The notes below the pieces were generated by a model. It was not told the origin of the DNA. It saw nothing but the letters and a program-made list of their open reading frames with translations, and ran no database searches. Of a stretch of DNA of 64,000 nucleotides, positions 2,111-51,638 are shown piece after piece; positions within the stretch are counted from its first letter, which is position 1, and every line of letters begins with the position of its first letter. The stretch comes from Mobula birostris (lineage: Eukaryota), in the NCBI RefSeq assembly GCF_030028105.1, contig NC_092402.1:35262843-35326842 (forward strand). The letters are read 5' to 3'. A program made the position numbers and the translations under genes.

Positions 2111-2267
2111 TGTCACGTACCCCGTGATGGGAATAAAGAACCAGAGATGGAAAACACTTTGGAGTCCAGTATTACTATAAACTAATAACATTTATTAGTA
2201 ACTATGCAATACAGTAATATAAATGTAGATAAACAGGTTAGCAATGATTTATATATATATGTGTGTG

Positions 2268-2308
<41 letters not shown>

Positions 2309-16549: not shown

Positions 16550-16654
16550 ATTGGAAGCAGTTTCACATGTGACAGCCCCAGCTCTATAAAACCATCAGTA
16601 CAGAACCAAACCTTCAGACTGCAAGTACATTCCATCCTACAGAGAGGGGTAAGT
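16550..16654 (+). promoter_or_regulatory. Putative Pol II core promoter and 33-nt non-coding first exon, probably of the LRR gene
   Basis: Reverse CCAAT (ATTGG, 16550), TATAAAA 16585-16591, Inr consensus TCAGACT 16614-16620 (A at +31 from the TATA), and consensus donor GTAAGT 16649-16654. Candidate acceptor CAG at 18819-18821, just upstream of the LRR ATG. Confidence 0.6.
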
Positions 16655-18852
16655 GATATCATGTATATTGATATATTCAGATCTTGTTACCTACATGTTA
16701 TTAATCTAATCAATTGCTGCATTGATAAGCAAAGAGAAAATGTTTCATATACTATAAATATTAAATTCAGTAAATGCTGGAAAAACACAGTGGGTCAGCC
16801 ATAATTTGTGGAACTCACAGGCAACTTTTGTTTTACTGCAGGCACTGAAAAGTAAAATTGCTGTAACCATATTCTGAGGAATAGAAGAAATGGCTATATA
16901 ATGATTAATCTGCTGTGTGCTTCCAGTTTTTATTGGATTGGCTGACAACTTAAAAAAATTGGAATATACAGTAATTTATGGGTTGAAATGATATAGAATG
17001 GGGTGTTACATCATGTATAATATATATTTAAATGAGAGACAGCTGACACATTGGACACCTTCCTAAGGATTATAGAAGAAATTTCAATGGTGTGCATAAC
17101 ACCAGAAAAGATTTCATTTTCGTGACACCCTGCACTGAATTTACCTACAGGTGTTTTGAATCTTTCACAAATATTTGTAAAAGTAAAATTATGCTAACAC
17201 CATTTATGGAGTACATGCTGTTTTTGTATACACCAAAAAATTATTAATACCAGCTGCTGGAAAAACCATGGAGGAAAGGAGAAGTTTGATGTGAATTGTT
17301 TTATGATTTTATTTTGTTTCTACCTGACTGTCTTCTACTTAATTTGATGGTTTAAGTTTTCTTGCTGTGCAGTGTAGAATTAAATGATTTTTCATGTTAC
17401 ATGCATAAATTCACAAACAAAACATTAATAAATATAAAGGAATATCCAGAGTTGATTCAAAGCATAGGACACCATTGGGTCCATTATCACCACTCTAATC
17501 ACTTGACTGGGTTATTCACTTACACCCATCCACTGACACTGTTCACAACCCATTTTAAGTTATCCTTTCTCAAATATGTATCAACTTTACATTTTACATC
17601 ATGCTTATCCTTAAGTTTTCAAAGTAAATTTATTACCAAAGTACGTGCATATATGTTACCATATACCACCTTGACATTCATTTTTTTGCAGGCATTTACA
17701 GGAAAATAAAGAAATCCAATAGAATTTATGGAAAAACCATACATAAATAAAGACTGGCTACCAATGTGTAAAGGAAGGGAAATTATATCTGCAAAGTATT
17801 TGAAGTTACTAGATAATATAATTCAACAAACCACCTCCTTCCCTCTTTATCAGCTGTTACCCATCTCTGTCCTTAGGTTACAGAAGGTGATGAATGTAAA
17901 TGGGCTCTTTGCAATTTACTTTATCAATTTTGAATACCTTATCCAGATCTCATTAATGACCTTTGATTGATCTACAGGAGCCTGGTTTCTTTAATCAGCT
18001 CTTATTCCAGGTTCAGCTTACGTATAAGAACATAATAGATAGAAGCAGCTGCAGGCCATTCAGCCCTCAAGTCAGCGCTGTCATTCAACAAGGTCATGGG
18101 TAATCTTTTACCTTAGCCCCACTTTCGTGCACTAATGCCCTGTTGTTTGAAAATTTGTTGATCTGGGGAATGAATAGACTTGAGTGACCAAGTCTCCAGT
18201 CCTCTGGGATACAGAATTCCATGTACAGTATTCAACACAGTTTAAGTGAAGAAATCTTCCCTCTTCTTAGTGCAGAATAGTTGACTCCTAATCTTGAGGG
18301 TTCTAGAATAGTGGAGGCACCCAAGACAGGACACAATATTCACAAGTTTACTACATGTCATTTAATATATAATTGTCGGGAAAACTAATTTAACCCAGAC
18401 AAATATAAAGGTAATAAGGGATTAGAATGTATATTTGATGTGGATCATGGGAGAAAAGTTAGACATTATGTTAAGTAACATATGTTTTATTTACTGTTAC
18501 AGTGACGAGAAAGTAGTTGTAAATTTGGACGTTCTTGACAAAGAAGAAATCAAAAACAAAAACAAATGACAAGCGATGAGCCTGCAGTGACAAGGTGAAT
18601 ATTGTATGTCCAAAATTAAAGGAAAAAGTAGCTTTAGAAAGGTAATCAAGAGAACAATCCGTAAATGTAAGCAAAAGACACAAATGCTACGATATATGTT
18701 TTCAATAGTTAAACTATTTGCGAGAGGTTGTTAAAGTGACTCAGTTTAATGGAACTGGCATACATTTTGCATTCGCCAAATACTTGAAGGAATTTGTTTA
18801 TCCGTATCTCGAAAACCTCAGTTTCTGAAGCACTTTGAAAATTGCAAACGGT

Positions 18853-19920
18853 ATGAACCTAATTATTACCACTTGCCTCGGTGTCTTGGTGGGCATCCTG
18901 AAGACCGATGGATTCAAACTGTGCCCGCACCGTTGCTCCTGCGATGATTTTTCCCATTTCGTGGACTGTAAAAGGCGTTCCCTGACTTCCATCCCGAGGG
19001 ATATCCCACACGGCACATGGATGCTAGACATTAGATACAACAACCTGGCTGAGATTCCCTGCGGTTCCTTCAGCGGACTGTGGTCCACGCGGGTAGTCCT
19101 GTTGGCTCGCAACCGAATCAATCGCATCCATTCTGGAGCCTTCGAGTCCCTGAATTTTCTGGAAAGCCTAGATCTGGATCAAAATCGTATAAAGTTTCTA
19201 CCCGGGGATCTTTCTAATAGCCTGCAGCACTTGATAGAACTGAGACTGTCGAATAACCATGTTGAATACATACACGGCGACAGCATGCGGAATTTGGAAA
19301 GCCTGCAGAAGTTGGACCTGAGCGGCAATTTGATCACGTCCATGGAAAGCGGGGTTTTCAGAGGTCTGCTCAAACTCCGGACTCTGTTCCTGAAAAACAA
19401 CAGGCTGGTCGTCATTGAAAACGGATACTTCCTCATGCTACAAAGTCTGGAAGTTCTTCACTTGGAGAATAACAACATTTCAACCATCCAGGGAGAAGCG
19501 TTCGGCTCTCTGCGGAGCTTGAATCTCCTGTGTTTGAATGGAAATCGTTTGAATCACATCAACTTCAAAACGTTTCTGAACATTCAGACTCAAGGAACCC
19601 ACCTGCAGCTCGCTCGTAATCATTGGACGTGTGACTGCGATCTCCAGAGAGTGTTTGGGAAGATCGTCAGTGTTCGGCATCTGCATGTAGACGATTACAG
19701 CAACATCACGTGTTCAGCTCCTGGACACCTCCTGGGATATCCACTGGTAGCAGTGGATTCGCAGCTGTGCGTGGCCGAGACTGCCACCGTCTTGGTGATA
19801 ACTGGCACGGTGCTGGTCACTGTCATCGCCGCCATGGTTATGGCCGAAAGGAACCGGAAGAAAGCCGGGAACAAGAGTTGGAACGACAACGACGGGCCCT
19901 TTGACTCTCAGGAGAAATGA
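18853..19920 (+). CDS. Type-I transmembrane leucine-rich-repeat protein, single coding exon, 355 aa (copy 1)
   Basis: ATG at 18853. Signal peptide MNLIITTCLGVLVGILKTDG; LRRNT CPHRCSC..VDC; 8 LxxLxLxxN repeats; LRRCT NHWTCDCDL...C..P...C; TM segment TATVLVITGTVLVTVIAAMVMA; short cytoplasmic tail. Confidence 0.92.
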   Translation: MNLIITTCLGVLVGILKTDGFKLCPHRCSCDDFSHFVDCKRRSLTSIPRDIPHGTWMLDIRYNNLAEIPCGSFSGLWSTRVVLLARNRINRIHSGAFESLNFLESLDLDQNRIKFLPGDLSNSLQHLIELRLSNNHVEYIHGDSMRNLESLQKLDLSGNLITSMESGVFRGLLKLRTLFLKNNRLVVIENGYFLMLQSLEVLHLENNNISTIQGEAFGSLRSLNLLCLNGNRLNHINFKTFLNIQTQGTHLQLARNHWTCDCDLQRVFGKIVSVRHLHVDDYSNITCSAPGHLLGYPLVAVDSQLCVAETATVLVITGTVLVTVIAAMVMAERNRKKAGNKSWNDNDGPFDSQEK

Positions 19921-21120
19921 CGCTTTGCTGAAGAACTGTATTGAGATCAATGGTGTCGGTTTCCGCTGAGATACCAGGTTCAGAACATCTTATCATAAAC
20001 ATTATCTTTCAAGAAAATGTTCTTGATAAATTGTAATCAGTTTCTGAGAGCCCACGTTCTGAGAACCCACAAAAGTAAACCAACTTTCAGAGAAATTAAC
20101 ACAACCATTTGTTTGAACAGAAATTGTATACCGTTCTTTATATCTCCCGATCTGTCAGGATTATGTCAAACGATAAATCATTCATTGAGAGTTGTTCCGG
20201 TTGTTTTTCCCCCCTTGAGAATGCACACTTTCCCGGAATATTAACAACACTGAATCCCCGCCACCCCGTCTGCTATAGAATGTTTCTAATTCCCTTATAG
20301 TTTAACCATTTTTTTTTGTAGCTAACACGGACCATGAATATTGGCGAGACTTGGAAATATCCCAACTGTAGTTCGATCCAAGCAGACGGAGAATGCTCGG
20401 AGTGAATCGGTGATGTAAGGGACAGGAAGAATATGAGACGGCAGATCAGTGAAGTCATGTCTATATGTATATCTGTAATGCAAAAGTATCAGGGAACGGT
20501 TATATTGATTAGTGCTACTTAAGTCAAAGTGGAAGTGAATGCTCTTGAATTACTCTAGCTTTGAATTTCTCGATGAACAGGTAAAACTGAACATTTTGCA
20601 TAGAGAATTCTTTGTTCCGCGCGATCCACTGGCTACTGCATTCCTAAAGAATTCAACAGCATGTCAAGCTCACTAGTAGATTAACAAGTCGGCTCGCTGC
20701 TTTCTTAAAATGTTATAAACGAAGTTCAGTTTTGAAACTCTAGATGTTTTCTGAGCTTTTATAGCTACATCAGAGTAGCTTTCTTAAACCGTTACAAGCA
20801 CTGATACTGGAGCCATCATTACCTGGTAAAATGGCGCTTACATGCAGTATGCGAAAATGAACTGCTTTGTGTTACTGTTCATTTTGGTGAAAAGTTAAAC
20901 TGAAGTGTGTCCTTTTAAAATTAATATTAATTATTAGCTGTTTCATCAACCTTAACCGTCAACAGGGCTTTTTAAAAATAATAATATTTTAAAATTTGTT
21001 CCTTGCGTGCTGGAAATTATAACTACTGTACTGTATTTCGTTTGCATTTTATATAAAGACCTTTGGGGGATTTCATCAAAGTATAGTGAGCATTTGATTA
21101 ATGCCAATTTAGCCAATATA

Positions 21121-21274
21121 CAGCAACACTCACAAAATGCTGGGGGAACTCAGCAGGTGAGGCAGCATCTATGGAAAAGAGTAAACTGTCGACGTTTCCG
21201 GCCGAGACCCTTCATCGGGACAAGAAAAAAAGATGAGAAGTTAGAGCAAGAAGGTGGTGGTGGTGGTGGTGGTC

Positions 21275-21321
<47 letters not shown>

Positions 21322-23400
21322 ACACGCGTACGTACGCACAAGGTGGTAGGTGATAGGCAAAACCGGGAGGGGGGAGGGTGAGGTAAAGAGCCGGGGAACT
21401 GATAGGTTAAAGAGATGACGGGCTGGAGAAGGGCGGGGGGGGGGGGAGTGGGATCTGATAGGAGAGGGTAGAAGACCGTGGAGGAAAGGGAAGGAGGAGG
21501 AGCACCAGAGGGAGGTGATGGGCAGGTAAGGAGATAAGGTGAGAGAGGGAAACAGGAATGGGAATGGGGAAGGGGGCAATTACCGGAAGTTCGAGAAATC
21601 GATGCTTATACCATCTTGTAGGAGGTTACCCAGACGGAATATGTTTTGCTCCTCCAACCTGAGTGTGGCTTCATCGCGACAATAGAGGAGAGCATGGATG
21701 GACTTGTCGGAATGGGAATGGGGAGTGGAATTAAAATAGGTGGCTTCCGAGAGATCTGGCTGAAGGAGCGTAGGTGCTCGGGGAAGCGGTCTCCCAATCT
21801 ACGTCGGGTCTCACTCATATACGGGAGGCCACACCGAGAGCACCCGATTTAGTAGATGACCCCAACGGATTCACAGGTGAAGTGTCGCCTCAGCTGGAAG
21901 GACTGTTTGGGGCCCTGAATGGTAGTGAGGGAGAAGGTATAGGGGCGGGTGTAGCACTTGTTCCGTTGGCAAGGCTAAGTACCAGGTAGCTGTGAGAACC
22001 AGTGGGGTTACAAAAAGGATTATATAAAAAAATCAGTAGGCAAATGTCTCCAGAGATAGAGACAGAGAAATCGAGAAAGGGGAGAGGGTGTTGGAAATAG
22101 AGCAGGTAAATTTTGAGGGCAATGGAAGTTGGAGGAAAAGTTGATTAAGTCGACGAGCTCGAATACAGGAAGCAGCAACAATGCAGCCGTCGATGTAGCG
22201 TAGGAAAAGTGGGGGATGGTCACCAGTGTAGGCTTGAAACATAGACTGTTCCACATGGCCGACAAAAAGTCAGGCAAAGCTAGGACCCATTCGAGTGCTC
22301 ATGGCTACTTACACCTCTGGTTTGGAGGAAGCGGGAGGAGCCGAAGGAGAGATTAACAGCTAGGACCGGTTCCGCCAGACGGAAGAGAGTGGTAGTGGAA
22401 GGGAGCAGGTTAGACCTGTTATCTAGAAAGAAGCGGGGAGCTTTAAGGCCCTCCTGATGGGGAATGGAGGGTGGAGGTGTATAGGAACCCGACGTCCATG
22501 GTGAAAGTGAGATGATCGGGGCCAGGGAAGTTGAAAAAATCCGGAGCATGTGAAATGTCACGGATGTAGGTAGGAAGGGACTGAACCTGGGGGGATAAAA
22601 CAGAGTCGAGGTATGCAGATAGAAGTTCAGCGTGACAGGAACAAGCAGAAACAATGGGTCTACCTGGACTAACGGGTTTGTGGACAGGAGGTAGCAACGG
22701 GAAGTGCGGGGTAAGGGAACTATGAGGTTGCTGGCAGTGAATGGGATCCAGAATAAGGGGATCCATAATAAGGACAATGATGGTGCGGGTGACAATGGTT
22801 GGTTCTCCTCAGTGAGGTCCTGTTCGAGGGGTAAGTACGAGGAAGTGACTGAGAGTTGTTGCTTGTCCTCAGCAAGTTAGGAGTCAGTCCTCCAGACAAC
22901 TACAGCACCTCGCTGCAGGTTTGCTGGTGAGGTTAGGATTAGTGTGGAGAGAGCAGAGACCAATGCGTTCTGAAGGAGTGAGGTTTGAATTTGAGAGAGG
23001 AGTGGTAAGGTCGAGACGGTTGAAGACTCGTCGGCATTTAGTACTGAAAAGATCCAGAGCAGGCAGAAGACCAGGGCAGGGTGTCAAGGGAGATGAGGAG
23101 GGTTGAAGACGGGAGAAAGGGGGTCATCGGTGCGGGGTAGAGAAACAGGCACGGGGACGGATGCGACGGAAGAAGCGCTCAGCTTCAAGGCGGGCGCGTA
23201 ACTCACCGATGTGTGGGCTTAGGGGGACGAAAGTTAGGCCCTTACTAAGGACAGAACGTTCTGCCTCAGAGAGGGGAAGGTCACAGGGAATAGTGAAGAC
23301 CCGGCATAGACAGCTGGGATCAGAGAGGGGAATTAGGGGAGGTTGGGGTTTTCAGGGAAGGTGGATGGGAGGAAGATGGAGTCTCCGAGGACCCAAGAGC
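21121..23400 (-). mobile_element. Degenerate Penelope-like retroelement (RT and GIY-YIG remnants)
   Basis: Minus-strand peptides PGRPIVSACSC, FTMDV, FLRYIDGC and ETRRRLGDRFPEHLRS. Terminal repeat with a mutated hammerhead at 21186-21223. (GGT)n/(GT)n at 21253-21319. Confidence 0.85.
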
Positions 23401-23451
23401 TGACGGAGAGCTTAAAGCTCTCTGCTTCTTTCTAGATAATATCTCGACCTT

Positions 23452-23682
23452 GTTTCCACTCTCCCCCCTCCCCCCGCACCCGCCCCCGCCAAGTTCAGAC
23501 CATTCCCACCTACATCCGTGACATGTCATATGCTCTGGATCTTTTCAAGTTCCCTGGCCCCGATCGTCTCATTTTCACCTTGGACTTCCATTTCCTATAT
23601 ACTTCCATCCTCCACCTCCCCATCAGAAAGACCTTAAAATTCTCCGCTTCTTTATGGATAGCAGACCCAACCTGCCCCCTCC
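23452..23682 (+). mobile_element. Inverted Penelope RT fragment
   Basis: Plus-strand homolog of minus-strand 22400-22600 (PTYIRD.S.A.D.F.FPGPD.L.FT.D). Confidence 0.7.
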
Positions 23683-24410
23683 ACGCACAACACGCTGGAG
23701 GAACTCAGCAGGTCGAGCAGTATCCGTGGAAACTAACAGTCAACATTTCGGGCCGGAACCCTTCGTCAGAACTGAAGAGGGAAGGGGCAGAGGCCCTATA
23801 AAGAAGGTAGGGGGAGGGTGGGAACGAGACGGCTGGTAGGTTCCAGGTGAAAAACCAGTCGGGAAAGATAAAGGGGTGGGGGAGGGGAAGCAGGGAGGTG
23901 ATAGGCAGGAAAGGTGAAGAAAGAATAGGGGAAAACACAATGGGTAGTAGAAGGAGGTGGGACCATGAGGGAGGTGGTAGGTAGCTGGGGGAGGGGCAGG
24001 GTGAAATAGGGATAGGGGAAGGGAGGGGGAGGGAATTACCAGAAGTTGGAGAATTCAATGTTCATACTAAGGGGCTGGAGACTACCCAGACGGTATATGA
24101 GGTGTTGCTCCTCCAACCTGAGTTTAGCCTCATCATGGCAGTAGAGGAGGCCACGTATGGACATGTCTGAATGGGAATGTGAAGCAGAGTTGAAGTGGGT
24201 GGCTACTGGGAGATCCTGTCTGTTGTGGCGGACGGAGCGGAGGTGCTCGACGAAGTAGTCCCCCAATCTGCATCGGGTTTCACCGATGTAGAAGAGGTCA
24301 CACTGGGAGCACCGGATGCAATAGGTGACCCCAACAGACTCACAAGTGAAGTGTTGCCTCACCTGGAAGGACTGTTTGGGGCCCTGAATGGTGGTGAGAT
24401 AGGAGGTGTA
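23683..24410 (-). mobile_element. Penelope-like element 3' part: GIY-YIG endonuclease plus terminal repeat
   Basis: ORF 24036-24419 reads GVTYCIRCSQCDLFYIGETRCRLGDYFVEHLRSV...LEEQHLIYRLGSLQPLSMNIEF. Confidence 0.9.
23737..23774 (-). ncRNA. Minimal type-I hammerhead ribozyme motif (Penelope terminal repeat); duplicated at 33884-33921
   Basis: Minus strand reads CAGTT-CTGACGA-A-GGGTTCCGGCCC-GAAA-T-GTT-GACTG. Confidence 0.55.
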
Positions 24411-25973
24411 GGGACCCACTTGGTCTGCATCCCAGGGTACTTAAGGAGGTGGCTCTAGAAATCGTGGATGCATTGGTAATTATTTTCGAATGTTCTATAG
24501 ATTCAGGATCAGTTCCTGCGGATTGGAGGGTAGCTAATGTTATCCCACTTTTTAAGAAAGGAGGGAGAGAGAAAACAGGCAATTATAGACCAGTTAGTCT
24601 GACATCAGTTGTGGGGAAGATGCTGGAGTCAATTATAAAAGATGAAATAGCGGCATATTTGGATAGCAGTAGCAGGATAGGTCCGAGTCAGCATGGATTT
24701 ACGAAGAGAAAATCATGCTTGACTGTTCTTCTAGAATTTTTTGAGGATGTAACTATGAAAATGGACATGGGAAAGCCAGTGGATGTAGTGTACCTGGACT
24801 TTCAGAAGGCCTTTGATAAGGGCCCACATAGGAGATTAGTGGGCAAAATTAGAGCACATGGTATTGGGGGTAGGTACTGACATGGATAGAAAATTGGTTG
24901 GCAGACAGGAAACAAAGAGTCGGGATTAACGGGTCCTTTTCAGAATGGCAGGCAGTGACTAGTGGGGTACCGCAAGGCTCGGTGCTGGGACCGCAGCTAT
25001 TTACAATATACATTAATGATTTGGATGAAGGGATTAAAAGTAACATTAGCAAATTTGCCGATGACACAAAGCTGGGTGGCAGTGTGAAATGTGAGGAGGA
25101 TGTTATGAGAATGCAGACTTGGACAGGTTGGGTGAGTGGGCAGATGCATGGCAGATGCAGTTTAATGTGGATAAATGTGAGGTTATCCACTTTGGTGGCA
25201 AGAACAGGAAGGCAGATTACTATCTGAATGGTGTCAAGTAGGAAAAGGGGAAGTACAACGAGATCTGGGTGTCCTTGTTCATCAGTCACTGAAAGTAAGC
25301 ATACAGGTACAGCAGGCAGTGAAGAAAGCTAATGGCATGTTGGCCTTCATAACAAGGGGAATTGAGTATAGGAGCAAAGAGGTCCTTCTGCAGTTATACA
25401 AGGCCCTGGTGAGACCCCACCTGGAGTGTTGTGTGCAGTTTTGGTCTCCAAATTTGAGGAAGGACATTCTTGCTATGGAAGGAGTGCAGCGTAGTTTCAC
25501 TGGGTTAATTCCAGGGATGGCGGGACTGTCATATGTTGAAAGATTGGAATGACTGGGCTTGTATACACTGGAATTTAGAAGGATGAGAGGGGATCTGATT
25601 GAAACATATAAAATTATTAAGGGATTGGACACGCTAGAGGAAGGAAACATGTTCCTGATGTTGGGGGAGTCCAGAACCAGAGGCCACAGTTTAAGAATAA
25701 GGGGTAGACCATTTAGAACGGAGTTGAGGAAAAACTTTTTCACACAGAGGGTTGTGGATTTGTGGAATGCTCTGCCTCAGAAGGCAGTGGAGGCCAATTC
25801 TCTGGATGCTTTCAAGAAAGAGTTAGATAGAGCTCTTAAAGATAGTGGAGTCAAGGGATATGGGGAGAAGGCAGGAACAGGGTACTGATTGTGGATGATC
25901 AGCCATGATCACAGTGAATGGCGGTGCTGGCTCAAAGGGCCGAATGGCCTACTCCTGCACCTATTGTCTATTG
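24411..25973 (+). mobile_element. 5'-truncated CR1 LINE (RT, frameshifted)
   Basis: Peptides [33 protein letters not shown] and KFADDTKL; tail CTATTGTCTATTG. Confidence 0.93.
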
Positions 25974-25975
25974 AC

Positions 25976-26134
25976 TCAAAGATCAAAGTAAATTTTATTA
26001 TCAAAGTACATCTATGTCACCATACACAACACTGAGATTCATTTTCCTGTGGGCATACTCAGCAAATCTATAGAACAGTAACTATAGCAGGGTCAATAAA
26101 AGATCAATCAGAGTGCAGAGGACAACAAACTGTG
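25976..26134 (-). mobile_element. 3' tail of the host Rex1/Babar LINE (duplicated copy)
   Basis: Identical to 36123-36281, which continues at 42789. Confidence 0.7.
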
Positions 26135-27071
26135 TCAAATGCCATCTATAAATTTGCTGATGATTCAGCCATTACTGGTAGAATCCCAAATGGCAATGAG
26201 AGGGTGTACAGGAGCAAGATAGACCAGCTAGTTGAGTGGTGTTGCAGCAACAACCTGGCACTCAATGTCAGTAAGATGAAAGAGCTGATTGTGCACTTCA
26301 GGAAGGGGAGGACAAGGGAACATGAACCAATCCTCATAGAGGGATCAGAAGTGGTGAGAGTGAGCAACTTCAAGTTCCTGGGTGTCAAGATCACTGAGGA
26401 TCTAACCTGGTCTGAACATATCGATGCAGCTATAAAGAATGCAAGGCAGCAATTATACTTCATTAGGAGTTTGAAGGGATTTGGTTTGTCACCTAAAACA
26501 CTCAAAGACTTCTACAGATGTATCGGGGAGAACATTCTGACAGGCTGCATCCCTGTCTGGTATGCGGGGGGGGGGGCGGGTGGAACTACTGCACAGAAGC
26601 TACAGGAAGTTGCAAAATTAGTCAGCTTAATATTGGGTAACAGCCTCCATAGCATCCAAGACATCTTCAAGGAGCGGTGCCTCAGAAAGGCGGTGTCCAT
26701 TATTAAGGGCCCCCATCACCTAGGGGATGCCCTTTTCTCACTGTTACCATCGTAGAAAGTACAGAAGCCTGAAGGCACGCACTCAGCGATTCAGGAACAG
26801 CTTCTTCCCCTCTGTCATCCGATTCATAAACGGACATTGAACCCGTCAACACTACCTCACTACTTTTTTATTTATATTTTTGCATTACTTATTTAATTTA
26901 ACTATTTTATATAAACACTATAACGCATAAACACTATTTCACTTTTTAAAATATTATTTCTGTTTTGCACTATTTTTAAACTAACTATTTAATATACATA
27001 TATATACTTACTGTAATTGTTTTACTTATTTTTAAAATATTTTTTCTTTCTGTATTATCATGTATTGCATT
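26135..27071 (+). mobile_element. Rex1/Babar-type LINE 3' part (duplicated copy)
   Basis: Peptide KFADDSAITG...LALNVSKMKELIVHFRK...FKFLGVKI. AT-rich 3' UTR is interrupted by the LTR at 27072. Confidence 0.85.
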
Positions 27072-28340
27072 TGTGAGGGGATCCAGGAGTTCCCCTATTA
27101 TCTGTTTGAAGAGAGACAGAGAGTTATTTACCACCGATATGTTGTTTTTGAAAAGAGAGAGAGAGAGAGAGACGAAGATTAACAGTTGGACTGTCACTTT
27201 AAGGCATTGGAAGTAACTTTGGATTTTTACTGAGTTTGGAGTTGGAGACAGCACCGAGCAGCTCGTAAGTTGCTGTGGTAACCGAAGGCGGTGTTATTTA
27301 ATGGACACTCGATGTTATGGTTTTCAGCAGGTTGTTGATATTTCTTCAAGGACTTGTTGCCTGCTTGTGCATTTCTTCACAGACAAAGGAAGGAGGGACT
27401 CTTTGAATGACAGGTGATGCTCAGCCTGGTGAGATAAATGGGAGGCCAGATGATACAGACCTCAGACACATGATCTGGACACTGAATGAGCATTGTTGTG
27501 CCCACAGAGAAAGTGGGTTTTGGAGGATCGATCAGGCGGATCGATCCCAATTGCTATTCCAACAGTGAAGAAGGGGTTGACTGGTGGGGAGTTGTCTATG
27601 TGTCCACCCTCGCCTGGGTGATAACTCCACCACAGGAAAACAGGTTCCCCTGGTTAAAGTCACAGTCGGTGACTTGTGAAGGATTTCGGAGGACGACAAG
27701 AAGATCGACGGCATCAGCTCACCTGAAGACTCAACTCACTCTCTCTCTCCATCACTACTCAACTAAATACCATGAACTGAACTTTACTCAACATCGTAAA
27801 ACTGTATCTTTTTACCCCTAGACTTAAAGAAGCTTGGGTTTCATACCTATGTATTCCACACTTACTTCCATATGTAATCATTGCTAACCTGTGTGATTTA
27901 TTTACATTGATATTACTGTATTGTGTAGTTAATAAATATTAGTAGTTTATGGCAATACTGGACTCCAAAGTGGTTTCTATTTCTGCTGGTTCTTTATCCC
28001 CGTCACAGGGTACGTGACATAATTGGGGCCTGCGTCCGCGATATGAACAAATTGGTCGGGAGGCTGGTTTGAATTGATTGGGGAAAATCCCTTTTGATTT
28101 GGACTTTTGATTTGGTTGTGTGGAAAAACAGCAGAAATGGATGTTAGAGACTTTCTGAAATCACCAGACCTGGTGACTTTGAAGTTAGCTAAAAAGTATG
28201 AGTTGTGAGACATTGCTAAAGAATTGAGAATTGAGGTAAAGAAGGGTGTGAGTAAGGTAGAAATTCAAAGAAAAATAGTTGAATATTATATAGATAAGGG
28301 AACATTTGATGAGGAGGCATTAGAGTTGTTCGTGGAAGGT
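27072..28340 (+). mobile_element. Duplicated 5' LTR (27072-28019), PBS and truncated gag start of the Gmr1-like element
   Basis: TG...CA LTR, PBS at 28024-28042, gag ATG at 28137; cut at the duplication junction. Confidence 0.92.
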
Positions 28341-28999
28341 CTCCAGTCCTCTGGGATACAGAATTCCATGTACAGTATTCAACACAGTTTAAGTGAAGAA
28401 ATCTTCCCTCTTCTTAGTGCAGAATAGTTGACTCCTAATCTTGAGGGTTCTAGAATAGTGGAGGCACCCAAGACAGGACACAATATTCACAAGTTTACTA
28501 CATGTCATTTAATATATAATTGTCGGGAAAACTAATTTAACCCAGACAAATATAAAGGTAATAAGGGATTAGAATGTATATTTGATGTGGATCATGGGAG
28601 AAAAGTTAGACATTATGTTAAGTAACATATGTTTTATTTACTGTTACAGTGACGAGAAAGTAGTTGTAAATTTGGACGTTCTTGACAAAGAAGAAATCAA
28701 AAACAAAAACAAATGACAAGCGATGAGCCTGCAGTGACAAGGTGAATATTGTATGTCCAAAATTAAAGGAAAAAGTAGCTTTAGAAAGGTAATCAAGAGA
28801 ACAATCCGTAAATGTAAGCAAAAGACACAAATGCTACGATATATGTTTTCAATAGTTAAACTATTTGCGAGAGGTTGTTAAAGTGACTCAGTTTAATGGA
28901 ACTGGCATACATTTTGCATTCGCCAAATACTTGAAGGAATTTGTTTATCCGTATCTCGAAAACCTCAGTTTCTGAAGCACTTTGAAAATTGCAAACGGT

Positions 29000-30067
29000 A
29001 TGAACCTAATTATTACCACTTGCCTCGGTGTCTTGGTGGGCATCCTGAAGACCGATGGATTCAAACTGTGCCCGCACCGTTGCTCCTGCGATGATTTTTC
29101 CCATTTCGTGGACTGTAAAAGGCGTTCCCTGACTTCCATCCCGAGGGATATCCCACACGGCACATGGATGCTAGACATTAGATACAACAACCTGGCTGAG
29201 ATTCCCTGCGGTTCCTTCAGCGGACTGTGGTCCACGCGGGTAGTCCTGTTGGCTCGCAACCGAATCAATCGCATCCATTCTGGAGCCTTCGAGTCCCTGA
29301 ATTTTCTGGAAAGCCTAGATCTGGATCAAAATCGTATAAAGTTTCTACCCGGGGATCTTTCTAATAGCCTGCAGCACTTGATAGAACTGAGACTGTCGAA
29401 TAACCATGTTGAATACATACACGGCGACAGCATGCGGAATTTGGAAAGCCTGCAGAAGTTGGACCTGAGCGGCAATTTGATCACGTCCATGGAAAGCGGG
29501 GTTTTCAGAGGTCTGCTCAAACTCCGGACTCTGTTCCTGAAAAACAACAGGCTGGTCGTCATTGAAAACGGATACTTCCTCATGCTACAAAGTCTGGAAG
29601 TTCTTCACTTGGAGAATAACAACATTTCAACCATCCAGGGAGAAGCGTTCGGCTCTCTGCGGAGCTTGAATCTCCTGTGTTTGAATGGAAATCGTTTGAA
29701 TCACATCAACTTCAAAACGTTTCTGAACATTCAGACTCAAGGAACCCACCTGCAGCTCGCTCGTAATCATTGGACGTGTGACTGCGATCTCCAGAGAGTG
29801 TTTGGGAAGATCGTCAGTGTTCGGCATCTGCATGTAGACGATTACAGCAACATCACGTGTTCAGCTCCTGGACACCTCCTGGGATATCCACTGGTAGCAG
29901 TGGATTCGCAGCTGTGCGTGGCCGAGACTGCCACCGTCTTGGTGATAACTGGCACGGTGCTGGTCACTGTCATCGCCGCCATGGTTATGGCCGAAAGGAA
30001 CCGGAAGAAAGCCGGGAACAAGAGTTGGAACGACAACGACGGGCCCTTTGACTCTCAGGAGAAATGA
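29000..30067 (+). CDS. Type-I transmembrane LRR protein, 355 aa (copy 2, protein identical to copy 1)
   Basis: Translation identical to 18853-19920. The putative native promoter/exon 1 is not part of the duplicated unit. Confidence 0.85.
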   Translation: MNLIITTCLGVLVGILKTDGFKLCPHRCSCDDFSHFVDCKRRSLTSIPRDIPHGTWMLDIRYNNLAEIPCGSFSGLWSTRVVLLARNRINRIHSGAFESLNFLESLDLDQNRIKFLPGDLSNSLQHLIELRLSNNHVEYIHGDSMRNLESLQKLDLSGNLITSMESGVFRGLLKLRTLFLKNNRLVVIENGYFLMLQSLEVLHLENNNISTIQGEAFGSLRSLNLLCLNGNRLNHINFKTFLNIQTQGTHLQLARNHWTCDCDLQRVFGKIVSVRHLHVDDYSNITCSAPGHLLGYPLVAVDSQLCVAETATVLVITGTVLVTVIAAMVMAERNRKKAGNKSWNDNDGPFDSQEK

Positions 30068-31267
30068 CGCTTTGCTGAAGAACTGTATTGAGATCAATGG
30101 TGTCGGTTTCCGCTGAGATACCAGGTTCAGAACATCTTATCATAAACATTATCTTTCAAGAAAATGTTCTTGATAAATTGTAATCAGTTTCTGAGAGCCC
30201 ACGTTCTGAGAACCCACAAAAGTAAACCAACTTTCAGAGAAATTAACACAACCATTTGTTTGAACAGAAATTGTATACCGTTCTTTATATCTCCCGATCT
30301 GTCAGGATTATGTCAAACGATAAATCATTCATTGAGAGTTGTTCCGGTTGTTTTTCCCCCCTTGAGAATGCACACTTTCCCGGAATATTAACAACACTGA
30401 ATCCCCGCCACCCCGTCTGCTATAGAATGTTTCTAATTCCCTTATAGTTTAACCATTTTTTTTTGTAGCTAACACGGACCATGAATATTGGCGAGACTTG
30501 GAAATATCCCAACTGTAGTTCGATCCAAGCAGACGGAGAATGCTCGGAGTGAATCGGTGATGTAAGGGACAGGAAGAATATGAGACGGCAGATCAGTGAA
30601 GTCATGTCTATATGTATATCTGTAATGCAAAAGTATCAGGGAACGGTTATATTGATTAGTGCTACTTAAGTCAAAGTGGAAGTGAATGCTCTTGAATTAC
30701 TCTAGCTTTGAATTTCTCGATGAACAGGTAAAACTGAACATTTTGCATAGAGAATTCTTTGTTCCGCGCGATCCACTGGCTACTGCATTCCTAAAGAATT
30801 CAACAGCATGTCAAGCTCACTAGTAGATTAACAAGTCGGCTCGCTGCTTTCTTAAAATGTTATAAACGAAGTTCAGTTTTGAAACTCTAGATGTTTTCTG
30901 AGCTTTTATAGCTACATCAGAGTAGCTTTCTTAAACCGTTACAAGCACTGATACTGGAGCCATCATTACCTGGTAAAATGGCGCTTACATGCAGTATGCG
31001 AAAATGAACTGCTTTGTGTTACTGTTCATTTTGGTGAAAAGTTAAACTGAAGTGTGTCCTTTTAAAATTAATATTAATTATTAGCTGTTTCATCAACCTT
31101 AACCGTCAACAGGGCTTTTTAAAAATAATAATATTTTAAAATTTGTTCCTTGCGTGCTGGAAATTATAACTACTGTACTGTATTTCGTTTGCATTTTATA
31201 TAAAGACCTTTGGGGGATTTCATCAAAGTATAGTGAGCATTTGATTAATGCCAATTTAGCCAATATA

Positions 31268-31421
31268 CAGCAACACTCACAAAATGCTGGGGGAACTCAG
31301 CAGGTGAGGCAGCATCTATGGAAAAGAGTAAACTGTCGACGTTTCCGGCCGAGACCCTTCATCGGGACAAGAAAAAAAGATGAGAAGTTAGAGCAAGAAG
31401 GTGGTGGTGGTGGTGGTGGTC

Positions 31422-31468
<47 letters not shown>

Positions 31469-34400
31469 ACACGCGTACGTACGCACAAGGTGGTAGGTGA
31501 TAGGCAAAACCGGGAGGGGGGAGGGTGAGGTAAAGAGCCGGGGAACTGATAGGTTAAAGAGATGACGGGCTGGAGAAGGGCGGGGGGGGGGGGAGTGGGA
31601 TCTGATAGGAGAGGGTAGAAGACCGTGGAGGAAAGGGAAGGAGGAGGAGCACCAGAGGGAGGTGATGGGCAGGTAAGGAGATAAGGTGAGAGAGGGAAAC
31701 AGGAATGGGAATGGGGAAGGGGGCAATTACCGGAAGTTCGAGAAATCGATGCTTATACCATCTTGTAGGAGGTTACCCAGACGGAATATGTTTTGCTCCT
31801 CCAACCTGAGTGTGGCTTCATCGCGACAATAGAGGAGAGCATGGATGGACTTGTCGGAATGGGAATGGGGAGTGGAATTAAAATAGGTGGCTTCCGAGAG
31901 ATCTGGCTGAAGGAGCGTAGGTGCTCGGGGAAGCGGTCTCCCAATCTACGTCGGGTCTCACTCATATACGGGAGGCCACACCGAGAGCACCCGATTTAGT
32001 AGATGACCCCAACGGATTCACAGGTGAAGTGTCGCCTCAGCTGGAAGGACTGTTTGGGGCCCTGAATGGTAGTGAGGGAGAAGGTATAGGGGCGGGTGTA
32101 GCACTTGTTCCGTTGGCAAGGCTAAGTACCAGGTAGCTGTGAGAACCAGTGGGGTTACAAAAAGGATTATATAAAAAAATCAGTAGGCAAATGTCTCCAG
32201 AGATAGAGACAGAGAAATCGAGAAAGGGGAGAGGGTGTTGGAAATAGAGCAGGTAAATTTTGAGGGCAATGGAAGTTGGAGGAAAAGTTGATTAAGTCGA
32301 CGAGCTCGAATACAGGAAGCAGCAACAATGCAGCCGTCGATGTAGCGTAGGAAAAGTGGGGGATGGTCACCAGTGTAGGCTTGAAACATAGACTGTTCCA
32401 CATGGCCGACAAAAAGTCAGGCAAAGCTAGGACCCATTCGAGTGCTCATGGCTACTTACACCTCTGGTTTGGAGGAAGCGGGAGGAGCCGAAGGAGAGAT
32501 TAACAGCTAGGACCGGTTCCGCCAGACGGAAGAGAGTGGTAGTGGAAGGGAGCAGGTTAGACCTGTTATCTAGAAAGAAGCGGGGAGCTTTAAGGCCCTC
32601 CTGATGGGGAATGGAGGGTGGAGGTGTATAGGAACCCGACGTCCATGGTGAAAGTGAGATGATCGGGGCCAGGGAAGTTGAAAAAATCCGGAGCATGTGA
32701 AATGTCACGGATGTAGGTAGGAAGGGACTGAACCTGGGGGGATAAAACAGAGTCGAGGTATGCAGATAGAAGTTCAGCGTGACAGGAACAAGCAGAAACA
32801 ATGGGTCTACCTGGACTAACGGGTTTGTGGACAGGAGGTAGCAACGGGAAGTGCGGGGTAAGGGAACTATGAGGTTGCTGGCAGTGAATGGGATCCAGAA
32901 TAAGGGGATCCATAATAAGGACAATGATGGTGCGGGTGACAATGGTTGGTTCTCCTCAGTGAGGTCCTGTTCGAGGGGTAAGTACGAGGAAGTGACTGAG
33001 AGTTGTTGCTTGTCCTCAGCAAGTTAGGAGTCAGTCCTCCAGACAACTACAGCACCTCGCTGCAGGTTTGCTGGTGAGGTTAGGATTAGTGTGGAGAGAG
33101 CAGAGACCAATGCGTTCTGAAGGAGTGAGGTTTGAATTTGAGAGAGGAGTGGTAAGGTCGAGACGGTTGAAGACTCGTCGGCATTTAGTACTGAAAAGAT
33201 CCAGAGCAGGCAGAAGACCAGGGCAGGGTGTCAAGGGAGATGAGGAGGGTTGAAGACGGGAGAAAGGGGGTCATCGGTGCGGGGTAGAGAAACAGGCACG
33301 GGGACGGATGCGACGGAAGAAGCGCTCAGCTTCAAGGCGGGCGCGTAACTCACCGATGTGTGGGCTTAGGGGGACGAAAGTTAGGCCCTTACTAAGGACA
33401 GAACGTTCTGCCTCAGAGAGGGGAAGGTCACAGGGAATAGTGAAGACCCGGCATAGACAGCTGGGATCAGAGAGGGGAATTAGGGGAGGTTGGGGTTTTC
33501 AGGGAAGGTGGATGGGAGGAAGATGGAGTCTCCGAGGACCCAAGAGCTGACGGAGAGCTTAAAGCTCTCTGCTTCTTTCTAGATAATATCTCGACCTTGT
33601 TTCCACTCTCCCCCCTCCCCCCGCACCCGCCCCCGCCAAGTTCAGACCATTCCCACCTACATCCGTGACATGTCATATGCTCTGGATCTTTTCAAGTTCC
33701 CTGGCCCCGATCGTCTCATTTTCACCTTGGACTTCCATTTCCTATATACTTCCATCCTCCACCTCCCCATCAGAAAGACCTTAAAATTCTCCGCTTCTTT
33801 ATGGATAGCAGACCCAACCTGCCCCCTCCACGCACAACACGCTGGAGGAACTCAGCAGGTCGAGCAGTATCCGTGGAAACTAACAGTCAACATTTCGGGC
33901 CGGAACCCTTCGTCAGAACTGAAGAGGGAAGGGGCAGAGGCCCTATAAAGAAGGTAGGGGGAGGGTGGGAACGAGACGGCTGGTAGGTTCCAGGTGAAAA
34001 ACCAGTCGGGAAAGATAAAGGGGTGGGGGAGGGGAAGCAGGGAGGTGATAGGCAGGAAAGGTGAAGAAAGAATAGGGGAAAACACAATGGGTAGTAGAAG
34101 GAGGTGGGACCATGAGGGAGGTGGTAGGTAGCTGGGGGAGGGGCAGGGTGAAATAGGGATAGGGGAAGGGAGGGGGAGGGAATTACCAGAAGTTGGAGAA
34201 TTCAATGTTCATACTAAGGGGCTGGAGACTACCCAGACGGTATATGAGGTGTTGCTCCTCCAACCTGAGTTTAGCCTCATCATGGCAGTAGAGGAGGCCA
34301 CGTATGGACATGTCTGAATGGGAATGTGAAGCAGAGTTGAAGTGGGTGGCTACTGGGAGATCCTGTCTGTTGTGGCGGACGGAGCGGAGGTGCTCGACGA

Positions 34401-34557
34401 AGTAGTCCCCCAATCTGCATCGGGTTTCACCGATGTAGAAGAGGTCACACTGGGAGCACCGGATGCAATAGGTGACCCCAACAGACTCACAAGTGAAGTG
34501 TTGCCTCACCTGGAAGGACTGTTTGGGGCCCTGAATGGTGGTGAGATAGGAGGTGTA
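31268..34557 (-). mobile_element. Duplicated Penelope-like cluster
   Basis: Copy of 21121-24410. Confidence 0.85.
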
Positions 34558-36120
34558 GGGACCCACTTGGTCTGCATCCCAGGGTACTTAAGGAGGTGGC
34601 TCTAGAAATCGTGGATGCATTGGTAATTATTTTCGAATGTTCTATAGATTCAGGATCAGTTCCTGCGGATTGGAGGGTAGCTAATGTTATCCCACTTTTT
34701 AAGAAAGGAGGGAGAGAGAAAACAGGCAATTATAGACCAGTTAGTCTGACATCAGTTGTGGGGAAGATGCTGGAGTCAATTATAAAAGATGAAATAGCGG
34801 CATATTTGGATAGCAGTAGCAGGATAGGTCCGAGTCAGCATGGATTTACGAAGAGAAAATCATGCTTGACTGTTCTTCTAGAATTTTTTGAGGATGTAAC
34901 TATGAAAATGGACATGGGAAAGCCAGTGGATGTAGTGTACCTGGACTTTCAGAAGGCCTTTGATAAGGGCCCACATAGGAGATTAGTGGGCAAAATTAGA
35001 GCACATGGTATTGGGGGTAGGTACTGACATGGATAGAAAATTGGTTGGCAGACAGGAAACAAAGAGTCGGGATTAACGGGTCCTTTTCAGAATGGCAGGC
35101 AGTGACTAGTGGGGTACCGCAAGGCTCGGTGCTGGGACCGCAGCTATTTACAATATACATTAATGATTTGGATGAAGGGATTAAAAGTAACATTAGCAAA
35201 TTTGCCGATGACACAAAGCTGGGTGGCAGTGTGAAATGTGAGGAGGATGTTATGAGAATGCAGACTTGGACAGGTTGGGTGAGTGGGCAGATGCATGGCA
35301 GATGCAGTTTAATGTGGATAAATGTGAGGTTATCCACTTTGGTGGCAAGAACAGGAAGGCAGATTACTATCTGAATGGTGTCAAGTAGGAAAAGGGGAAG
35401 TACAACGAGATCTGGGTGTCCTTGTTCATCAGTCACTGAAAGTAAGCATACAGGTACAGCAGGCAGTGAAGAAAGCTAATGGCATGTTGGCCTTCATAAC
35501 AAGGGGAATTGAGTATAGGAGCAAAGAGGTCCTTCTGCAGTTATACAAGGCCCTGGTGAGACCCCACCTGGAGTGTTGTGTGCAGTTTTGGTCTCCAAAT
35601 TTGAGGAAGGACATTCTTGCTATGGAAGGAGTGCAGCGTAGTTTCACTGGGTTAATTCCAGGGATGGCGGGACTGTCATATGTTGAAAGATTGGAATGAC
35701 TGGGCTTGTATACACTGGAATTTAGAAGGATGAGAGGGGATCTGATTGAAACATATAAAATTATTAAGGGATTGGACACGCTAGAGGAAGGAAACATGTT
35801 CCTGATGTTGGGGGAGTCCAGAACCAGAGGCCACAGTTTAAGAATAAGGGGTAGACCATTTAGAACGGAGTTGAGGAAAAACTTTTTCACACAGAGGGTT
35901 GTGGATTTGTGGAATGCTCTGCCTCAGAAGGCAGTGGAGGCCAATTCTCTGGATGCTTTCAAGAAAGAGTTAGATAGAGCTCTTAAAGATAGTGGAGTCA
36001 AGGGATATGGGGAGAAGGCAGGAACAGGGTACTGATTGTGGATGATCAGCCATGATCACAGTGAATGGCGGTGCTGGCTCAAAGGGCCGAATGGCCTACT
36101 CCTGCACCTATTGTCTATTG
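34558..36120 (+). mobile_element. Duplicated 5'-truncated CR1 LINE
   Basis: Copy of 24411-25973. Confidence 0.93.
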
Positions 36121-38288
36121 ACTCAAAGATCAAAGTAAATTTTATTATCAAAGTACATCTATGTCACCATACACAACACTGAGATTCATTTTCCTGTGGG
36201 CATACTCAGCAAATCTATAGAACAGTAACTATAGCAGGGTCAATAAAAGATCAATCAGAGTGCAGAGGACAACAAACTGTGTCAAATGCCATCTATAAAT
36301 TTGCTGATGATTCAGCCATTACTGGTAGAATCCCAAATGGCAATGAGAGGGTGTACAGGAGCAAGATAGACCAGCTAGTTGAGTGGTGTTGCAGCAACAA
36401 CCTGGCACTCAATGTCAGTAAGATGAAAGAGCTGATTGTGCACTTCAGGAAGGGGAGGACAAGGGAACATGAACCAATCCTCATAGAGGGATCAGAAGTG
36501 GTGAGAGTGAGCAACTTCAAGTTCCTGGGTGTCAAGATCACTGAGGATCTAACCTGGTCTGAACATATCGATGCAGCTATAAAGAATGCAAGGCAGCAAT
36601 TATACTTCATTAGGAGTTTGAAGGGATTTGGTTTGTCACCTAAAACACTCAAAGACTTCTACAGATGTATCGGGGAGAACATTCTGACAGGCTGCATCCC
36701 TGTCTGGTATGCGGGGGGGGGGGGGGGGCGGGTGGAACTACTGCACAGAAGCTACAGGAAGTTGCAAAATTAGTCAGCTTAATATTGGGTAACAGCCTCC
36801 ATAGCATCCAAGACATCTTCAAGGAGCGGTGCCTCAGAAAGGCGGTGTCCATTATTAAGGGCCCCCATCACCTAGGGGATGCCCTTTTCTCACTGTTACC
36901 ATCGTAGAAAGTACAGAAGCCTGAAGGCACGCACTCAGCGATTCAGGAACAGCTTCTTCCCCTCTGTCATCCGATTCATAAACGGACATTGAACCCGTCA
37001 ACACTACCTCACTACTTTTTTATTTATATTTTTGCATTACTTATTTAATTTAACTATTTTATATAAACACTATAACGCATAAACACTATTTCACTTTTTA
37101 AAATATTATTTCTGTTTTGCACTATTTTTAAACTAACTATTTAATATACATATATATACTTACTGTAATTGTTTTACTTATTTTTAAAATATTTTTTCTT
37201 TCTGTATTATCATGTATTGCATTTGTGAGGGGATCCAGGAGTTCCCCTATTATCTGTTTGAAGAGAGACAGAGAGTTATTTACCACCGATATGTTGTTTT
37301 TGAAAAGAGAGAGAGAGAGAGAGACGAAGATTAACAGTTGGACTGTCACTTTAAGGCATTGGAAGTAACTTTGGATTTTTACTGAGTTTGGAGTTGGAGA
37401 CAGCACCGAGCAGCTCGTAAGTTGCTGTGGTAACCGAAGGCGGTGTTATTTAATGGACACTCGATGTTATGGTTTTCAGCAGGTTGTTGATATTTCTTCA
37501 AGGACTTGTTGCCTGCTTGTGCATTTCTTCACAGACAAAGGAAGGAGGGACTCTTTGAATGACAGGTGATGCTCAGCCTGGTGAAATAAATGGGAGGTCA
37601 GATGATACAGACCTCAGACACATGATCTGGACACTGAATGAGCATTGTTGTGCCCACAGAGAAAGTGGGTTTTGGAGGATCGATCAGGCGGATCGATCCC
37701 AATTGCTATTCCAACAGTGAAGAAGGGGTTGACTGGTGGGGAGTTGTCTATGTGTCCACCCTCGCCTGGGTGATAACTCCACCACAGGAAAACAGGTTCC
37801 CCTGGTTAAAGTCACAGTCGGTGACTTGTGAAGGATTTCGGAGGACGACAAGAAGATCGACGGCATCAGCTCACCTGAAGACTCAACTCACTCTCTCTCT
37901 CCATCACTACTCAACTAAATACCATGAACTGAACTTTACTCAACATCGTAAAACTGTATCTTTTTACCCCTAGACTTAAAGAAGCTTGGGTTTCATACCT
38001 ATGTATTCCACACTTACTTCCATATGTAATCATTGCTAACCTGTGTGATTTATTTACATTGATATTACTGTATTGTGTAGTTAATAAATATTAGTAGTTT
38101 ATGGCAATACTGGACTCCAAAGTGGTTTCTATTTCTGCTGGTTCTTTATCCCCGTCACAGGGTACGTGACATAATTGGGGCCTGCGTCCGCGATATGAAC
38201 AAATTGGTCGGGAGGCTGGTTTGAATTGATTGGGGAAAATCCCTTTTGATTTGGACTTTTGATTTGGTTGTGTGGAAAAACAGCAGAA

Positions 38289-38930
38289 ATGGATGTTAGA
38301 GACTTTCTGAAATCACCAGACCTGGTGACTTTGAAGTTAGCTAAAAAGTATGAGTTGTGAGACATTGCTAAAGAATTGAGAATTGAGGTAAAGAAGGGTG
38401 TGAGTAAGGTAGAAATTCAAAGAAAAATAGTTGAATATTATATAGATAAGGGAACATTTGATGAGGAGGCATTAGAGTTGTTCGTGGAAGGTGAACCTAC
38501 TGAGGATGAGCTTCAGCTTCTGTTGGAAATATTAAAGAGGGAGCATGAATTGAAATTAAAACTGCTCGAGAGAGAAGCTGTTGAAGCAGAAAAGCGAAGG
38601 GTCCATGAGGCTAGAAAGGCAGAGAAACAGAGAGCAGAAGCAGCAAAACAGAGAGAAGAGACAGAAAGACAGAGACAGCTCGAGAGGGAGAAATGGCAAC
38701 GTGAAGATCACGTGGCAGAAAGGCAGAGACAGTTTAAAAGGGAGTAGTTGCAGCAAAGAGGCTTAGTGTCGGACCCTGATGATTTTTACAGCTCAGAAGG
38801 GTTTGTTTCGTGTGATGAATTTAAAAGTTGTGTTCCTGATGAGGTAAGGGCATATCCTGTGGCAGAGGATGCCCCACCCTGAGGGGGTCTGTTGAGAAAG
38901 CAGACGAGGAAGTTTTAACCCATGAGGTTG
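38289..38930 (+). pseudogene. Defective gag with coiled coil and SCAN-like capsid remnant
   Basis: MDVRDFLKSPDLVTLKLAKKYEL*DIAKEL..., an E/R/K-rich coiled coil, then DEFKSCVPDEVRAY...ADEEVLTH. Confidence 0.7.
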
Positions 38931-39899
38931 AGTTAACTCCAGATGAGAGTTTGCCAGAGAATAGCCGGGAGGTTCGAGATGACCTTGAATTTGAAACTGG
39001 GACTAGTGATGACAGCCCAGAAGAGGCAGTTGTTCTGATTGCCTGTGTTCAGGTTGTTGAAGTACCTGTGGGTTCACAGGATTCTGAACATGATGTTGAG
39101 GCTCAGTTGAAGTCTGAGGTGCCTGACTTGGTTGGAAAGGAATGCAGTTTTTGTGTGTCAGATGATCTTGGTTCAGTGAATAAGGGTTAACCTTGGTACC
39201 AGTGGAATGTGAGGATTCTCAGTCATTTGTAGTAGACAGTGTTTTAAAAGCTGGTGAGGTCAATGTTGCTGGAAGTAATGGGAAAAGTGCTGTTCCTGGA
39301 CTTTTGGATAAAGTGCTGGGAAAGGTTGGATTGGTTGCACGCTCTTTGACCCTGCTTGCAGGACAAAGGCCCGCTGAGACAGGATGCGCTAGTTTGTTGG
39401 ACTTTGTTTGGACATTTAAGCACCTGCAAGGTCATGCTGTTATTCAGAGTAATATTATGGAGAGGAAGAACTGTTGTGATTTTGGAGTGGGAGTTGCTAT
39501 GGAAGCAAGTGGAAGTATAGGACGTAATCAGATGGGTAGTTTATTTGGTCTCTTCCATAATGTATACATGATTCTGATCAGCCTGATGATGGTACTGAGT
39601 TTAATAAACAATGGAGACATGTTGACAGCTCTCCAAGGTAAGAGTGTTTCAGCAATTCAGCTAATGAGCAAAGCTGCTGTTGAGGCCTATAGCAGGACCA
39701 AAGGTTTAAATTATGATATGTCACAGACTTTTCTACCTTCCAGATTTCAGCAGGACTTAGAGGGTAGTACAATTGATAAGGGTAAGGTGTATAAGAAAGA
39801 TTTGTCTTTATTGAGAAAGAAATGTATCGAGGAACAGAAGCGAGATTCTGGAATGGTGACTTTAAGGGAGATGGCTCTCACAGGAGAGGAGGTTCAGAG

Positions 39900-51507: not shown

Positions 51508-51638
51508 ATGGCGCTGGATGCTCGCAGGCGGTTTTTTAAACTCCTCATGCGCCTCGGCGCCATCATCCTTACACGGTTCCCCTTTTGGAATTGCTTCAGC
51601 ATGTTGATGCTGTTTGCAGAACGAGCTGATCAGCGCAG
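51508..51638 (+). CDS. TMEM101: Transmembrane protein 101, coding exon 1
   Basis: MALDARRRFFKLLMRLGAIILTRFPFWNCFSMLMLFAERADQR; CpG-rich context; donor AG|GTGAGT; phase 2. Confidence 0.93.

Follow-up and report, generated by a model that had tools for sequence, protein, structure and literature searches.

Tandem promoter swaps and LTR exaptation are both already well described. In the human ASIP/ITCH case, a tandem duplication sets a coding sequence that lacks its own first exon behind a foreign 5′ region (PMC9771800). The tandem duplications described in Drosophila yakuba are young, ignore gene boundaries and have the potential for new expression (PMC5460883), and among the TE promoters reported from zebrafish, DNA-X-9_DR at srl and LTR-10_DR at add1 are cases in which a TE upstream of host exon 2 could replace exon 1 (PMC9341505). 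Adjacent near-identical copies with an apparent gene gain are also produced by false assembly duplications, which are mostly gap-separated (PMC9516828).

A locus in Mobula birostris has a comparable layout. Self-BLAST of a 64-kb stretch of DNA (hereafter the window) revealed a head-to-tail repeat, 18192-28340 versus 28339-38492, with 99.93% identity over 10,154 columns. The repeat contains a complete LRR ORF and ends inside a Gypsy element. The following features are found in and around it:

18192-28338, + strand: tandem unit 1, 10,147 bp; its left breakpoint coincides with one edge of a decayed intron 1 repeat fragment
28339-38490, + strand: tandem unit 2, 10,152 bp
28339-28340, + strand: junction between gag and intron, gapless, with a 2-bp overlap and one occurrence in the assembly
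18853-19920, + strand: LRR ORF copy 1, 355 aa, with LRRNT, LRRs and a short tail
29000-30067, + strand: LRR ORF copy 2, letter-identical to copy 1, with an acceptor AG ending at 28968
27072-28019, + strand: duplicated 5′ LTR, 948 bp with TG...CA ends, a copy of the 5′ LTR of the Gypsy element
28020-28338, + strand: PBS-like tract, leader and gag stub, with an ATG at 28137 and a stop after 23 codons
37224-42713, + strand: complete but decayed Gypsy element with domains in Gmr1-type order, gag and pol being broken

An earlier, sequence-only reading of this DNA had reported most of this arrangement, and all of its coordinates were correct on recomputation. Unit 1 begins, as claimed, downstream of a TATA/Inr/donor module and upstream of the acceptor and ATG; the second ORF (ATG 29000, acceptor ~28968) is intact and identical to the first; and copy 2 does stand without its likely exon 1 behind a co-oriented LTR. 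The full LTR, PBS and gag stub described in front of copy 2 are present with one correction, namely that LTR and stub (27072-28338) are a copy of the 5′ end of the element at 37224-42713 and belong to the duplicated unit.

In the 355-codon protein, which contains LRRNT and LRR domains, inspection shows a signal-like N-terminus and a single hydrophobic, TM-like stretch. It is 67-81% identical to cartilaginous-fish orthologs, 59% identical to coelacanth P0012 and 53% identical over 92% to zebrafish si:ch211-237i5.4 (P0071), and it has the equal length and C-terminal TM motif of that zebrafish family. On these matches the ORF is classed as a member of the si:ch211-237i5.4 LRR-TM family. No bird or mammal names occur among the best 120 of its 238 matches, and a literature search found no publications naming ch211-237i5.4. 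The family is without known function; of the earlier label "LRR receptor", the first part stands and the second is a guess. A paralogous LRR-TM gene on C7 (L003, 140,153,972-140,157,982) is 46% identical to the present one. Its 5′UTR has a short intron, and a CpG island lies 350-1000 bp ahead of the ATG, in contrast to the TATA-type exon of the present gene; the two may differ in promoter type. Downstream of the LRR stop codon no canonical AATAAA is found within 1.8 kb (19921-21730); the poly(A) signals there are all variants, at 20074, 20714 and 21052, with an ATTAAA at 21730.

The gene order at the locus is a bHLH exon, LSM12, the LRR gene, TMEM101 and, on the opposite strand, NAGS (neighbourhood loci L042:67-630 on the minus strand, L047:2748-3074 and L052-L054). 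We take the LSM12/TMEM101/NAGS order to resemble that of human 17q21.

51529-59166, + strand: TMEM101, the downstream neighbour, with four coding exons and a single copy in the assembly

AD-domain exons of LSM12 lie 15-17 kb upstream of the window; its last exon was not located in a scan of 148 of 514 unmasked ORFs. With TMEM101 exon 1 at 51529 and the LSM12 exons at that distance, nesting of the LRR gene in a neighbour's intron is unsupported. Two further transposon remnants lie on the minus strand of the window. The first (2111-3066), a solo LTR flanked by a 4-bp target-site duplication, belongs to a related subfamily: it shares 77% identity with the LTR at 27072 and still has a TATA-like run at the family position. 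The second (61270-62009) is what remains of an ORF similar to the restriction-like endonuclease end of a non-LTR retrotransposon; its endonuclease motif is presumably of HERO/NeSL type, and a Pfam search returned no match for it.

The two units differ in total by two substitutions and one G-run. Both substitutions are transitions within the LTR (27433/37585 and 27446/37598), 13 bp apart, and the G-run at 26566 has 11 G in one unit and 16 G in the other; 8,374 bp of the units are without a single difference. The run lies in the repeat immediately upstream of the LTR:

26036-27071, + strand: LINE-like RT remnant with 3′ tail, the target of the Gypsy insertion, carrying the G-run at 26566

Unit-to-unit divergence is 2.0e-4 (2/10,147; 95% range 2.4e-5 to 7.1e-4), and the two adjacent substitutions could equally reflect age, a single event or an error in the consensus. 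The C at 27446 is private: of 30 LTR copies aligned, just 1 has it, and a 22-mer spanning both substitutions is found a single time in the 4.0-Gb assembly. This private base and the 5-nt difference in the G-run together argue for two templates. We rejected gene conversion as the source of both LTR substitutions, as no donor copy was found among the 40 of 5,299 candidates scored or in the exact genome-wide search for the 22-mer.

At the junction, the 2-bp overlap is as large as random breakpoints give (P=0.17), so microhomology is ruled out as a signature of the mechanism. Non-allelic homologous recombination (NAHR) between repeats is likewise rejected, since the breakpoints share no homology beyond chance words. 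The gag sequence at one breakpoint is multi-copy, with at least 38 other matches. We found no N letters in the 64-kb window, no other repeats reaching 99% identity over 300 bp or more in the 264 kb searched, and no second haplotig of the ORF, the intron or TMEM101 in the assembly. Words of 27900-30100 occur in at least 20 sequencing runs from 7 studies, none of them recorded as RNA; DNA runs of one organism contain 0.87-0.90 of these words, those of a second 0.69-0.75, and runs presumed to be RNA up to 0.59, shares that do not bear on the junction and carry no weight here.

The Gypsy element consists of a 5′ LTR (37224-38171) and a 3′ LTR (41747-42713) enclosing the internal region, with an identical 4-bp target-site duplication on both sides. 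Its two LTRs are 96% identical and differ at 19 of 948 sites (2.0e-2); set against the unit-to-unit value of 2.0e-4, this makes the duplication about 100 times younger than the element. Both units have the gag stop after 23 codons, and none of the 6 other family copies spanning this position does; the element was therefore already dead by the time of the duplication. At a mutation rate of 7e-10 per base per generation, as given for the epaulette shark (PMC10587355), a hand calculation puts the age of the duplication at roughly 1.4e5 generations, a figure that is lower if both adjacent substitutions are one event, or are allelic. Against the LTR-plus-stub query, further copies of the family show 82-93% identity, and the family therefore looks old.

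In the window copy of the element, RT and RNase H alone score in the Pfam search. A relative, L063 (86-89% identical), encodes Integrase_H2C2 and rve followed by RVT_1 and RNase H, the two integrase matches falling just below the Pfam cut-off. An integrase placed before RT-RNase H is the order described for Gmr1 elements (PMC8220671), and the TG...CA LTR ends and 4-bp target-site duplication of Gmr1-clade Gypsy elements (PMC8220671, PMC11117352) are common to the present one. The reference elements of that clade differ from the present copy, which is decayed, internally deleted and typed by domain order; judged by the domain order of its relative, it is probably a Gmr1-type Gypsy element. A search for an empty pre-insertion site gave 0 matches among the fetched loci. 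Elsewhere in the family, three LTRs lie about 4.9 kb apart at C7:186,071,569-186,082,202 (L014, L017), which suggests a tandem LTR-internal-LTR-internal-LTR array. Another copy contains a GIY-YIG-bearing insert (L064:2140-2943) that we take to be Penelope-like.

Upstream of the duplicated unit lies a module that resembles a promoter.

16550-16654, + strand: likely core promoter and non-coding exon 1, by motifs; outside the duplicated unit

It comprises ATTGG at 16550, TATAAAA at 16585, an Inr-like sequence at 16614-16620 and a donor GT at 16649. Across the 528,000 strand-bases examined around the locus, this is the single match to a strict TATA+Inr+donor rule, which was defined after the 16585 site had been noticed; relaxing the rule gives 2. 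In the C7 paralog (L003, donor 876), one coding exon likewise appears to be preceded by a non-coding exon 1 and an intron. From these motifs and their placement we infer that 16585 is the promoter of the LRR gene. If it is the sole promoter, copy 2 would be a coding exon without a promoter of its own.

CpG content points the other way. The region 16400-16900 has 0 CpG observed versus 15 expected, and CpGs are retained inside the unit instead:

18500-21100, no strand: CpG-retaining domain covering the coding exon and ~350 bp upstream; duplicated at about 28650-31250

Observed/expected (o/e) ratios are 0.97 at 18500-18852, 0.82 in the ORF and 0.79 at 19921-21100, versus 0.14-0.16 upstream; the TMEM101 promoter region has 1.07. 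That the retaining zone lies within the unit and not at 16585 is a point against reading 16585 as the promoter. The domain is AT-rich, and the only other such 500-bp bins of the window are 7501 and the TMEM101 promoter. It may mark a germline-unmethylated, Polycomb-type gene. Motifs within it also outline an additional exon:

18503-18594, + strand: candidate extra 5′UTR exon, with an acceptor AG ending at 18502 and an 8/9 donor GT at 18595; motif only

This candidate is repeated at about 28650-28741. Together, the CpG-retaining zone and the internal acceptor and donor (18502/18595) make an internal start possible, which would be common to both copies. By eye, and ambiguously, ortholog P0003 has an N-terminal extension that may be colinear with the DNA upstream of the copy 1 acceptor, whose AG ends at 18821; the ambiguity led us to drop the extensions of P0003, P0122 and P0123 as guides to exon 1.

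We then compared the LTR with its family. Among the other aligned copies (L013-L040), 25 of 28 carry a TATAWAW motif ~60 nt before the LTR AATAAA (positions 27860-27881), the exceptions being L015, L018 (the element's own 3′ LTR) and L029. No TATAWAW is present anywhere in the 948 bp of the LTR at 27072, where the family site (about 27866-27877) is eroded, nor in the LTR at 37224. The AATAAA at 27931, common to 26 of the 28 other copies, is intact. Based on its position and conservation, we infer that the family motif is the TATA box of an LTR with a long U3 and a short R. LTRs can initiate transcription without a TATA box, and the CpG o/e of this one, 0.43, indicates partial depletion. What an LTR promoter calls for is present as far as a co-oriented LTR before an acceptor and ORF; an intact core promoter, with the motif taken as TATA from its position, is absent. 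Loss of TATAWAW and retention of AATAAA suggest that the LTR is a terminator between the copies rather than a promoter, and we consider a poly(A) trap or terminator its more likely role. Both the AATAAA at 26095 and that at 27931 lie between the LRR copies. The earlier step from "Gypsy LTRs carry promoters" to an LTR that drives copy 2 is thus unsupported here, given an eroded TATA-like site, a dead element and an intact poly(A) signal.

The donor-like sites claimed for the gag stub, GTGAGT at ~28248 in particular, do exist, but they are neither strong nor denser than background. GTGAGT at 28248 matches 6 of 9 donor positions, none of them exonic; the stub donors (28173-28257) score 6-7/9 and none reaches 8/9, whereas the apparent TMEM101 donors score 7-9/9. 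The 318-bp stub has 6 sites of at least 6/9, and 26 are found in each of the 2,152-bp intron and a 1,900-bp control. Splicing at 28248 would leave 5 ATGs in a leader started in the LTR, among them the strong-context gag ATG, which opens a 23-codon uORF; an unspliced leader would contain 20. A gag-LRR fusion protein is impossible, since the gag stop precedes both the junction and the donors from 28236 on.

We propose that 10.15 kb were very recently duplicated in tandem by a non-homologous event, with one breakpoint in intron 1 of an LRR-TM gene of two exons and the other within the gag of an old, dead Gmr1-type Gypsy element downstream. Copy 1 would retain its TATA-type promoter and exon 1 and function as before, and copy 2 would be an intact ORF without exon 1. 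The TATA-like site of the LTR would have been lost before the duplication and its poly(A) signal retained, so that the LTR would end read-through transcripts from copy 1 more often than it starts new ones. With no exon 1 and an LTR that terminates rather than initiates, copy 2 would be mostly silent, a neutral copy-number variant. We have moderate confidence in this reading as a whole, in which the tandem copy-number variant is real and very recent and its second ORF has essentially no promoter; that the duplication is real we consider likely. Rather than having gained expression, the additional copy is probably either silent or a product of misassembly.

An assembly error would mean that the animal has one copy and that one 10-kb region was written twice, a chimeric read or the closing of a gap having linked two alleles or two read consensuses. 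This is possible, though on balance unlikely. The extreme identity and the long stretch free of differences are what such an error would leave, as are a breakpoint in multi-copy gag and a junction overlap at chance level, and same-scaffold false duplications do occur even in curated long-read assemblies, some of them N-free across read-depth gaps (PMC9516828). According to the same source, however, heterotype false duplications favour heterozygous regions, yet the present units are nearly identical. The window is also gap-free, no comparable repeat occurs in the 264 kb, and the private substitution and G-run difference imply two templates.

The other alternatives accept the duplication and differ in where transcription of copy 2 would begin. 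A real or secondary promoter inside the unit, at ~18360-18850, would be carried by both copies and make this a plain dosage duplication, which we consider improbable. The o/e of the 350 bp before the ORF resembles that of the TMEM101 promoter and differs from the CpG-free surroundings of 16585; in 7 of 7 other LRR loci the 350 bp before the guessed first ATG have an o/e of 0-0.53, the CpG island of the paralog lies just 350-1000 bp before its ATG, and a TATATAA is found at 18366. Against these stand the extent of the CpG zone, which spans the whole ORF and 3′ flank in the manner of a gene-body unmethylated domain, 7 ATGs within 18503-18852, and the rarity and good placement of the 16585 module. 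Very unlikely, in our view, is a start in the LTR, with splicing from gag stub or LTR to 28650 or 28969, so that the intact LRR protein would be made in a new pattern, gonad being one example. The co-oriented LTR does lie 0.95 kb before an intact acceptor and ORF and is only partly CpG-depleted, zebrafish testis commonly uses TE-derived alternative promoters (PMC9341505), and tandem duplications often yield new expression through chimeric structures (PMC5460883). Such a transcript would, however, have to arise from an old and dead element at an eroded TATA-like site, bypass an intact poly(A) signal, use a stub donor of at most 7/9, and carry the strong-context gag ATG with its uORF and 4 further upstream ATGs, all on a duplication that itself may not exist. 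We least expect exon 1 (donor 16649) to be spliced at times to the copy 2 acceptor after 12 kb of read-through. The missing canonical AATAAA within 1.8 kb of the copy 1 stop and the identity of the two acceptors would permit it, but the proximal acceptor must be skipped and the AATAAA at 26095 and 27931 passed; the mRNA would be identical to the normal one, with the protein unaffected and no new function. We retain a recent tandem variant with a mostly silent second copy as the best explanation.

If copy 2 is silent or artefactual, the locus is an annotation issue only, and the two LRR ORFs are not to be counted as two functional genes. An LTR-driven copy 2 would instead combine a tandem promoter swap with LTR exaptation and offer a clean natural experiment, identical ORFs under different promoters in a dated young event, with a possible handle on an uncharacterised LRR-TM family. 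It is a long shot that the duplication is both real and segregating and that the eroded LTR still initiates transcripts, for example in gonad, that are spliced to copy 2. A single event would in that case have added a second, retrotransposon-controlled expression domain to an unchanged, conserved vertebrate LRR-TM protein, and promoter exaptation would be seen at its very start, in a cartilaginous fish.

Measured against the described systems, the locus differs in what lies upstream of the coding sequence and in the kind of evidence. The foreign promoter of ASIP/ITCH is an active housekeeping promoter with demonstrated ectopic expression (PMC9771800), whereas here it is the LTR of a dead element with an eroded TATA-like site, known from sequence alone. 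The Drosophila yakuba duplications were confirmed by population RNA-seq (PMC5460883), and the ray case comes from an assembly. TE starts in zebrafish have RNA-seq and nanoCAGE support and arose by insertion (PMC9341505), whereas the LTR here reached its position by duplication with its core motif eroded. False assembly duplications resemble the locus in their adjacent, near-identical copies (PMC9516828), which here are joined without a gap. The likeness to the ASIP/ITCH, Drosophila and zebrafish cases is one of layout only.
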